64,000 nucleotides of DNA. Origin: an uncultured Gemmatimonadaceae bacterium. Its GTDB lineage: Bacteria > Gemmatimonadota > Gemmatimonadetes > Gemmatimonadales > Gemmatimonadaceae. The stretch is taken from assembly GCA_963740355.1 (NCBI GenBank), contig CAVUDW010000003.1:1792001-1856000 (forward strand), read 5' to 3'. This document shows positions 47,886-49,077 of the stretch, piece after piece. Under the pieces are notes generated by a model. The model did no database searches and was not told the origin of the DNA. It saw nothing but the letters and a program-made list of their open reading frames with translations. A program made the position numbers and the translations under genes. Position 1 is the first letter of the stretch. Each line of letters opens with the position of its first letter.

Positions 47886-47944
47886 CTGAAACTGTGTCAC
47901 GCAGAGGACTGCAACTGCAAAACGCAGAGTAGCTGTGTTGAAAG

Positions 47945-48880
47945 TCAGGCCGTGGCGGGCGTGGGGGTCCGCCACGGTGTTTGCGTTTTGACCATCGCGT
48001 TGAGGATGGTGAGGAGGCGGCGGAGGCACGCGATCTTGGCGACTTTGGTGGGCTTCCCGGCGGCGCGCAGCGCCGCGTAGACGGGCTGAAGGACCGGGTT
48101 CCACCGGGTGGCGACATGGGTGGCCATGTAGAGGATCGAGCGAATGGTCGCGCGTCCGCCCCAGCACACGCGGGCGCCGCGGAACTGCCCGGATTCCTGC
48201 GCGAGCGGCGCGACGCCCACGAGCGCGGCAATGGCGCGCCGATTCAGCGTCCCCAATTCGGGCAACAAGGCGACCAAGTACCGTGCGCTCTGCTGGCCGA
48301 TGCCCGGCACGCTCGTCAGGAGCGTCACCTGCGCTTGCCAGGCCGCATTCCGTTCGATCAGTTCGCCGATCTCATTGTCGATGTCACGCAGCGCCTCGGC
48401 GAGCGCCTCCAACGTCCCGCGCACATTCGTCGCCACGCGCGCGGTCGCGACGTGCAGGCGATTCTTCTCCATCGTCTGCATCGTGACCAACTGCCGGCGC
48501 CGTTCCACCAAGGCCGCCAGCGCCTGCTGCTCCGCGTCGGCGAGCGGCCGGACGGGTGGGGCGAGCACGGCGCCAAACCGCGCCAGGATGCGCGCATCCA
48601 CGCGATCCGTCTTCGCCAACTGGCCGGTGCTGCGCGCGAACTCGCGCACCTGCCGCGGATTGACGACCGCGACGGGGATCCCGGCGCCGGTGAGCGCGCC
48701 GGCGACGGCGCGATGATACGTGCCCGTCGCTTCCAGCACGACCAAGGTCGGCGGCTGCGCCGTCAGCGCGGTGACGAAGGCGTCGATGTCCGCGGCTGTA
48801 TTGCGGAGCTGCGTGACCGCGCCGTCGTGGACCGCCACATCCAAGTGGGCCTTGCTGACATCAATGCCGAGATACGTCAT
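47945..48880 (-). CDS. IS110 transposase/recombinase (311 aa)
   Basis: GIDVSK, LEATG, KTDRVDA (D-E-D-D), SVPGIG, GVAP...ESG serine; GGAGG RBS. Confidence 0.95.
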
Positions 48881-48899
48881 ACTGCCTCCAGGTGACGAC

Positions 48900-49060
48900 C
48901 GCGCGCGCCCTGCCTTGCGAGATGCGGGATCGCGTCGGCGTCCCTGGTAGCTGTCCGGGCTTGTAGCGATCGGGACGACGGCGCTCTGACTCTGCGACGG
49001 GCTCACGGCGCCCGGGGCGCTCCGAACGAGCTGCCGCCGTCCCGGAGATTTAGCTTCTGT
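48900..49060 (-). ncRNA. Predicted bridge RNA (target- and donor-binding loops)
   Basis: Two stem-enclosed loops carrying ACAGCTAC/GCAAG (donor) and GCGCC/CGCAGAG (target); transcript ends approximate. Confidence 0.75.
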
Positions 49061-49077
49061 GCGAGGAGACATACAAG

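Follow-up and report, generated by a model that had tools for sequence, protein, structure and literature searches.

A putative bridge-RNA-guided IS110-group element inserted in a dispersed host repeat of an uncultured Gemmatimonadaceae bacterium

The element, its recombinase and its copies

We analysed a stretch of 64,000 nucleotides (the window) from an uncultured Gemmatimonadaceae bacterium (GenBank assembly GCA_963740355.1, contig CAVUDW010000003.1, positions 1,792,001 to 1,856,000), in which an IS110-family insertion sequence occupies positions 47928-49077 on the minus strand. A previous reading made from the letters alone (the sequence-only reading) had proposed that this element carries a bridge RNA, of the kind described for IS621 of Escherichia coli, that is programmed against a host repeat. 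The element is asymmetric, with a long non-coding left end (LE) of 197 nt, a single recombinase gene and a short right end that extends 17 nt past the stop codon. Its principal features are as follows.

47928-49077, minus strand: whole IS110-family element, 1150 bp with the CT core counted at both ends; seven full-length copies share these ends
49076-49077, minus strand: core CT of the left junction, read in the sequence and the same in seven copies
47928-47929, minus strand: core CT of the right junction, read in the sequence and the same in seven copies
49071-49075, minus strand: right donor TGTAT, part of the CTTGTAT shared without change by all 24 aligned left ends
47930-47936, minus strand: left donor ACAGCTA, located at the right end, read in the sequence and the same in seven copies
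47945-48880, minus strand: recombinase gene, 311 aa plus stop; the open reading frame (ORF) is intact in all seven copies
48885-48889, minus strand: putative ribosome-binding site GGAGG, 4 nt upstream of the ATG

The 311-aa protein matches two Pfam domains (PF01548 DEDD_Tnp_IS110, 1.3e-26; PF02371 Transposase_20, 1.1e-15), and its residues D7, E50, D92, D95 and S230 align with the catalytic D11, E60, D102, D105 and S241 of IS621 (numbering from PMC11208158; the available parts of this paper and of PMC11208160 are the source of the IS621 details throughout). Its closest solved structures by sequence are the ISCro4 transposase (PDB 9t56, 2.3e-35) and the IS621 transposase (PDB 8wt6, 1.1e-32), and a public protein from a Gemmatimonadaceae bacterium, annotated as an IS110 family transposase, is 61% identical. 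The predicted combination of a DEDD RuvC-like N-terminal domain with a C-terminal Tnp domain bearing a catalytic serine places the protein in the IS110 family, and both this assignment and the compact recombinase of the sequence-only reading (ORF 48880-47945) stand.

The host genome (5.45 Mb in 5 contigs, 65% GC) contains seven full-length copies that are 97-100% identical and have identical termini in 7/7 cases. All seven lie in the context GCGC-CT-element-CT-CTGCG(T/A)T, the outcome that the earlier reading had proposed to test for; insertion is sequence-specific, with the single motif GCGC-CT-CTGCG holding every copy. The outer flanks are unrelated, with divergence beginning about 10-20 nt out, and the copies therefore represent independent insertions. 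The junctions lie where they had been placed (TCTGCGC 49084-49078, CT 49077-49076 and TGTAT 49075-49071 on the left; ACAGCTA 47936-47930, CT 47929-47928 and CTGCG 47927-47923 on the right). The termini (CTTGTATG... and ...ACAGCTACT) do not form inverted repeats, and CT is the only sequence common to both junctions in the seven copies. No solo left ends, solo right ends or orphan bridge RNAs were found by blastn of the genome. A bias towards one replication strand was also considered and rejected: all seven copies lie on the contig minus strand, but the two contigs that carry them (C2 and C3) belong to opposite replichores by GC skew, leaving five copies co-directional and two opposite.

A constrained and structured left end

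The left end is numbered from the element terminus, such that LE position n corresponds to window position 49078-n. It comprises two loop modules, each enclosing an inner hairpin.

48881-49077, minus strand: left end and predicted bridge-RNA region, 197 nt, supported by sequence constraint, structure and guide covariation
48971-49044, minus strand: target-binding loop module, LE 34-107, from the minimum free energy (MFE) fold; outer stem 34-45/96-107 plus 47-50/92-95, with bulged A46
48998-49014, minus strand: inner hairpin of the target loop, LE 64-80, from the MFE fold
48898-48970, minus strand: donor-binding loop module, LE 108-180; outer stem 108-112/176-180 plus 118-121/168-171
48926-48944, minus strand: inner hairpin of the donor loop, LE 134-137/149-152, from the comparative structure

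Three sequence variants exist among the seven copies: five copies are identical, while the window copy and a second copy, L007, each occur once. The window copy differs from the five-copy variant at 21 sites, all within the gene (18 at third codon positions, with 2 amino-acid changes), and 35 sites separate L007 from the window copy. Across the three variants, 21-43 sites of the coding sequence differ but only 0 or 1 in the left end. When compared with third codon positions, this amounts to 0/197 against 18/311 for the window copy and the five-copy variant (Fisher p=2e-4) and to 1/197 against 26/311 for L007 and the window copy (Fisher p=3e-5), and the non-coding left end is therefore more constrained than synonymous sites. 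The sole change, at LE 142 in L007, falls in the apical loop of the donor-loop inner hairpin.

Comparison with relatives supports a conserved RNA fold. A structure of 34 pairs was drawn from the window copy and scored on an alignment of 24 left ends (A1, in which the row L018 comes from an unpublished genome, G007). In this alignment 83.8% of cells are paired, compared with 35-48% when partners are slid by 1-3 columns, and 20 of the 34 pairs show compensatory change on both sides; shuffles reached the observed value in 0/500 trials on four of five measures and in 5/500 on the fifth. Both sides have changed in 10 of the 13 pairs of target-loop helix 2, and in four pairs of donor-module helices 5 and 6, which are 95% paired. 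These values bear out the earlier description of a left non-coding end of ~195 nt with two stem-closed loops, including its target-loop stem (49033-49043/48972-48982), an 11-bp helix that grows to 16 bp, including a single bulged A, in the MFE fold. The RNAalifold prediction contains both the target-loop stem and the donor-loop hairpin; it also pairs CTTGT with (G/A)CAAG, which is the right donor guide appearing as intramolecular complementarity. The region in which a 5' stem-loop would be expected (LE 11-33) is variable and poorly aligned, and the MFE fold shows only a 2-bp hairpin there.

Guides that follow each element's own target and ends

Within the two loops we identified segments corresponding to target, donor and handshake guides.

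49016-49020, minus strand: left target guide GCGCC, LE 58-62, equal to left target GCGC plus core C; GCGC lies left of CT in 7/7 copies
48990-48996, minus strand: right target guide CGCAGAG, LE 82-88, complementary to core CT plus CTGCG with a 7/7 match
48988-48989, minus strand: putative target-loop handshake guide U89 C90, of which U89 can pair with donor position 7 (A) and not with target position 7 (C)
48947-48954, minus strand: left donor guide ACAGCUAC, LE 124-131, equal to right-end ACAGCTA plus core C
48914-48923, minus strand: discontiguous right donor guide, consisting of A155 U156, a 3-nt bulge, G160 (G-T pair with donor T12) and C161 A162 A163 G164, which pairs with CTTGTAT
48912-48913, minus strand: putative donor-loop handshake guide G165 C166, able to pair with target positions 7 and 6 (C, G)

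The four loop segments named in the sequence-only reading were found at their coordinates (GCGCC 49020-49016, CGCAGAG 48996-48990, ACAGCTAC 48954-48947 and GCAAG 48918-48914). The stronger evidence for their assignment comes from relatives, in which each element's loop columns covary with its own flank and its own end. Of 200 further genomes from the same taxonomic family, 32 contain homologues (E<=1e-30). The right target guide was examined in 19 elements with a readable right flank, having dropped L007 (the same element as L001), L020 (flank cut by a contig end) and L018, L031 and L037 (no right end in the locus). Its five non-core bases form 84 of 95 possible Watson-Crick pairs with the element's own right target, scoring 5/5 in 12 elements, 4/5 in six and 0/5 in the outlier L032. 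The right targets include 17 distinct pentamers, for which the non-cognate mean is 1.63 of 5, and none of 10000 permutations reached the observed sum, although the elements are kin and the permutation figures given here and below overstate independence. For the left target guide, the run of matches anchored on core C averages 3.90 nt in 21 elements, compared with 2.28 nt for non-cognate combinations (0/10000 permutations); the signal for this putative guide is real and weaker than that for the right. A relative with four copies provides a second natural case, since all four lie in GTGAAC-CT-CTGTG and match that element's own guides.

Throughout the clade the right target guide comprises the core plus five bases, 7 nt in total. 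A longer right guide was considered and rejected: LE U81 does not pair with position 15, which is T in 6/7 copies, and the conserved TT past CTGCG is therefore attributed to the host repeat. The guides as read support a right-leaning mode of target reading in which 5+2 nt would be recognised on the right and 4+1 nt on the left. The earlier description of a long right and a short left guide, the reverse of IS621, holds up in these terms (right 7 nt against 4, left GCGC plus C against 9 nt).

The donor guides behave likewise. In 19 elements representing six distinct heptamers, 133/133 positions of the left donor guide agree with the right end of the same element (0/10000 permutations). In another element, L043 (G051:C2), the left donor guide ACAGCCGC faces the right end ACAGCCA-CT and donor position 7 is mismatched, which was seen in no other element. 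On the other side, A155/T156 and CAAG are invariant or nearly so, with a contiguous ATACAAG in two relatives. CTTGTAT is itself invariant, and covariation with the right donor guide AU..(G/A)CAAG is therefore impossible. The sequence-only reading had taken GCAAG with one G-T wobble as the right donor guide; this much was confirmed, but the reading was incomplete, as A155-U156 (48923-48922) also belong to the guide, as they do in IS621.

Putative handshake guides are also present, going beyond what the sequence-only reading had described. The rule applied, that these bases pair with non-cognate DNA, was taken from PMC11208158. In 19/20 elements the first base of the target-loop handshake guide pairs with donor position 7 (U-A with ACAGCTA donors, C-G with those ending in TTG or CTG), and the first donor-loop handshake base forms a Watson-Crick pair with target position 7 in 13/21 and a G-U pair in 5/21. 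Pairing with the cognate DNA occurs in 1/21 and 0/20 cases.

The host repeat and the choice of site

The genes flanking the element encode a metallo-beta-lactamase-fold protein and an aldo/keto reductase, and the element occupies the outer edge of a cluster of about 450 bp with two inverted arms. The intergenic segments 47886-47927 and 49078-49520 are full of host repeats, namely GCAGTT 6-7-mers, 16-17-mers and CTCTGCGY 8-mers, in the two inverted arms.

49078-49093, minus strand: left target flank, two tandem host 8-mers, CTCTGCGC CTCTGCGC, with the guided part GCGC at 49081-49078
47923-47927, minus strand: right target CTGCG, the remainder of the next host 8-mer, in 7/7 copies
49485-49495, plus strand: perfect but empty target site GCGCCTCTGCG, located in the inverted arm of the intergenic repeat cluster

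The target is a host repeat, as had been proposed. GCGCCTCTGCG occurs 32 times in the genome, compared with 13.5 expected from composition, and three of these occurrences lie directly left of a copy of the element; most belong to an intergenic repeat, dispersed over the genome, with the structure (GCAGTT)n-CTCTGCGY-CTCTGCGY-(CTCTGCGW)-TTTGCAGT. Two or more tandem 8-mers are found at 37 loci. The left flank of the copies is CTCTGCGC in six cases and CACCGCGC in one, and the site of one copy (L002) is outside any repeat array. Since the recognised site GCGC-CT-CTGCG is the junction of two tandem 8-mers (CTCTGCGY), the same unit is read by both guides, one on each strand. Among intact arrays, 29 junctions have GCGT before CTCTGCG and 13 have GCGC, whereas insertions are at GCGC in 7/7 cases. 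This preference, despite the greater number of GCGT junctions, fits a check of target position 7.

With regard to arrangement, the repeat family occupies 37 or more loci, often as inverted pairs 150-1500 bp apart, and each occupied array (copies L001-L007, on contigs C2 and C3) is the left member of such a pair. The unoccupied GCGCCTCTGCG at 49485-49495 is followed by TT and is oriented opposite to the element, some 400 bp away.

A candidate promoter across the circle junction

47943-47948, minus strand: -35-like box of a presumed circle-junction promoter, overlapping the TGA stop; CTGACT here and TTGACT in the other six copies

Of 32 right ends, 27 share a further motif, TTGAY, at a distance of 21 nt (22 in one case) from the terminus. 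In a circle, TTGAY would precede TATGTC or TATCTA of the left end by 17 nt. A junction promoter across joined ends has been described for IS621 (PMC11208160), and the combination of TTGAY with TATGTC/TATCTA would fit such a promoter, albeit with a weak -10. A consensus scan of the coding strand found no promoter within the integrated left end.

The T-to-C change in the -35 box of the window copy is synonymous and affects the last codon, the other form being TTGACT (T-TGA-CT) in the five identical copies and in L007. The TTGACT variant represented by five identical copies is probably the recently active one, and its copy number hints that the window copy may be less active.

Comparison with IS621 and other RNA-guided elements

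The element shares with IS621 (PMC11208160 and PMC11208158) a two-domain DEDD/Ser recombinase, a left-end RNA (predicted here) with the target loop before the donor loop, left guides with the sequence of the top strand, right guides with that of its complement, a CT core and a target in a host repeat. The likeness extends to the bulged A of the target-loop stem, the split right donor guide with a G-T pair, the handshake guides and the right-end -35-like box, and since the IS621 structure has the same non-canonical pair, the G-T wobble of the sequence-only reading is that pair. The donor ACAG...-CT-TGTAT is identical to ACAGTATCTTGTAT at 11/14 positions, and the IS621 donor string given in that reading agrees with the dDNA (donor DNA) oligonucleotide in PMC13396178. 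In RNA coordinates the two systems agree within 1-10 nt (IS621 values from PMC11208158).

Target loop: IS621 34-98 with flipped A43; here 34-107 with bulged A46
Left target guide: IS621 50-58 (A50-U58); here 58-62 matched
Right target guide: IS621 77-80 (G77-G80); here 82-88
Target-loop handshake: IS621 81-82; here 89-90
Donor loop: IS621 110-177; here 108-180
Left donor guide: IS621 123-130; here 124-131
Right donor guide: IS621 A157-U158/G161 (G-T)/C162-G165; here A155-U156/G160 (G-T)/C161-G164
Donor-loop handshake: IS621 166-167; here 165-166

The differences are also clear. The proteins are only about 30% identical (phmmer 1.1e-32; 311 aa here against a 328-residue PDB chain), the host here is of a high-GC (65%) Gemmatimonadales type, and the element is known here in silico only. 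While the right target guide is 7 nt rather than 4, the left is 4+1 rather than 7+2, with a second core base that is not U, and the right-donor-guide bulge is 3 nt rather than 2. Total target reading remains at about 11 bp, as in IS621 (7+2+2, PMC11208160), but is right-weighted here.

Durrant et al. (PMC11208160) report some orthologues with a longer right target guide, and the supplementary files of that study contain GCGCCTCTGCG-bearing targets tied to a different bridge RNA; both the rule and the target class therefore had precedents. The sequence-only reading had suggested that this member and its specificity might be undescribed. The member is new, but the specificity class already appears in those supplements. 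The circle-junction 14-mer was not found in seven supplementary text files of Durrant et al., which cover the supplement in part and do not establish its absence. A literature search returned two papers containing both IS110 and Gemmatimonadota, in neither case in the title or abstract.

Among other systems, the ISCro4 transposase is the best solved-structure match by sequence (over residues 3-303) and has the same domain order, as judged by protein alignment only. IS1111-group elements, which belong to the same transposase superfamily, use a seekRNA that reads donor and target and is located downstream of the gene, in the right end. Here, by contrast, the RNA is in the left end and the right end is only 17 nt long after the stop. 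ISPpu10 and ISPpu9 of Pseudomonas putida resemble our element in being IS110-group, in several copies and all in repeated intergenic host sequence (bioRxiv 10.64898/2026.03.19.712850, available part). They differ in that ISPpu10 reportedly needs a target stem-loop besides base pairing (same source), and no such shared structure was seen when the seven left flanks were inspected by eye.

Proposed mechanism and alternatives

We consider it very probable that the segment 47928-49077 is an intact IS110-group element that moves by bridge-RNA-guided recombination in the manner of IS621. By analogy with that system, the element would excise as a circle whose joined right and left ends form a sigma-70 promoter (TTGACT, 17 nt, TATGTC) driving the bridge RNA. 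An RNA-bound recombinase tetramer would unite circle and target, exchange top strands at CT via a serine intermediate and then resolve the junction. The bottom strand would pair with GCGCC of the target loop (equal to left target GCGC plus core C), and CT plus CTGCG of the top strand with CGCAGAG of that loop. In the donor loop, ACAGCUAC would match the right end and AU...GCAAG would pair discontiguously with CTTGTAT of the left end, with the two-base handshake guides fitting the opposite DNA and not the cognate.

Several observations weigh against this interpretation, in addition to the kinship of the elements compared. Logan contigs from four DNA runs over 47400-49600 break at the element ends, with no circle junction and no empty site; one X2 contig joins the right end to a different outer flank, which suggests another insertion elsewhere. 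No public RNA run is listed as containing element sequence, and a scan of 47700-49400 with Rfam 15 returned no bridge-RNA family, only chance matches (E>0.6). The single-sequence MFE fold contains the target loop but folds the donor region unlike the comparative structure, with a modest z-score of -2.68, and the target-loop inner hairpin is poorly aligned over relatives, being about 60% paired on the MAFFT alignment. Left-guide runs are 6-7 nt in seven elements and only 1-3 nt in 11 of 21, and a relative with three copies keeps its right target while its left targets vary. Finally, the candidate -10, TATGTC, matches the consensus at 3/6 positions, and with its own -35 mutated the window copy is perhaps poorly mobile.

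One alternative is a real IS110 element whose recombinase itself recognises the host repeat, with the left-end matches arising as by-products such as target or donor remnants. The target does lie in a conserved host repeat, such that flank conservation alone could reflect the repeat, and the empty list of RNA runs is in line with this reading. We regard this explanation as highly improbable, as the left-end segments change together with differing flanks and right ends (17 right-target pentamers, 6 donor heptamers), which a protein-only model does not predict, and they lie in loops of a conserved, covarying structure whose layout matches the experimentally proven IS621 RNA (PMC11208158). A second possibility accepts the bridge RNA but assigns it a full nine-base left guide, GGAGCGCCC, as in IS621, the seven natural sites being tolerated imperfect targets. 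The 5' side of the loop is 13 nt, the same as in IS621, and left-guide runs of relatives reach 7-8 nt. We nevertheless think it unlikely, given that the distal GGA is matched at 0/7 sites (TCT in six, ACC in one), the second core base of the guide is C rather than U, and only the proximal GCGC plus C is matched in every copy.

The third alternative concerns the window copy alone, which may be silent or decaying if its -35 change stops bridge-RNA expression from the circle and only the five-copy variant moves. It is the only copy of seven with CTGACT, the box is kept at a fixed distance in 27/32 right ends, and the window variant is single-copy beside five identical copies with TTGACT. On the other hand, this copy has kept its ORF, its catalytic residues and its bridge RNA, with an identical left end, the bridge RNA and recombinase of other copies could act in trans, as shown for IS621 (PMC11208160), and L007 has TTGACT yet is also single-copy. 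On balance we view silence of the window copy as possible but doubtful.

Returning to bridge-RNA-guided recombination, we hypothesize that this Gemmatimonadales clade represents a natural right-weighted bridge RNA, with a fixed 7-nt right guide, a left guide as short as 4+1 without core-T pairing, and position 7 checked twice, by the left guide and by the two-base donor-loop handshake; we hold the chances of this being so to be evenly balanced. If true, compact 311-aa enzymes would read targets unlike the 9+4 split of IS621 and could offer a ready-made long-right-guide scaffold; a single RNA would use its two guides to read one and the same tandem host 8-mer, each on a different strand. More generally, the element is a member of a described RNA-guided system and reveals no new mechanism. 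It provides a natural bridge-RNA example from a little-studied high-GC soil/sediment lineage, with seven sites and about two dozen relatives whose guides are directly readable, and it would extend the IS621 rules (guide order, split right donor guide, handshake bases and right-end -35) to about 30% protein identity. That natural elements can shift target reading rightward may also help the choice of orthologues in genome engineering.

Variant and degenerate relatives

A second subclade (L019, L024, L025, L026, L030, L035 and L036) has the donor ACAGTTG. Its insertion sites read ...CT-AACG(C/A/G)... and then run into GC-rich palindromes, and would seem to represent a further conserved host sequence. 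One of its members, L024 (G187:C1, oriented 1410-1494), has a left end of only 85 nt that begins as usual, keeps the 5' half of the target-loop stem and then runs into the gene, and most of its bridge RNA has therefore been deleted; the same genome contains a second copy. In another relative, L034 (G164:C6), the right end closes with a tandem duplication of its terminal 26 nt, GGCTTGACAACGAAGACAGTTGCT, and the gene has an internal TAG and lacks its 5' part.

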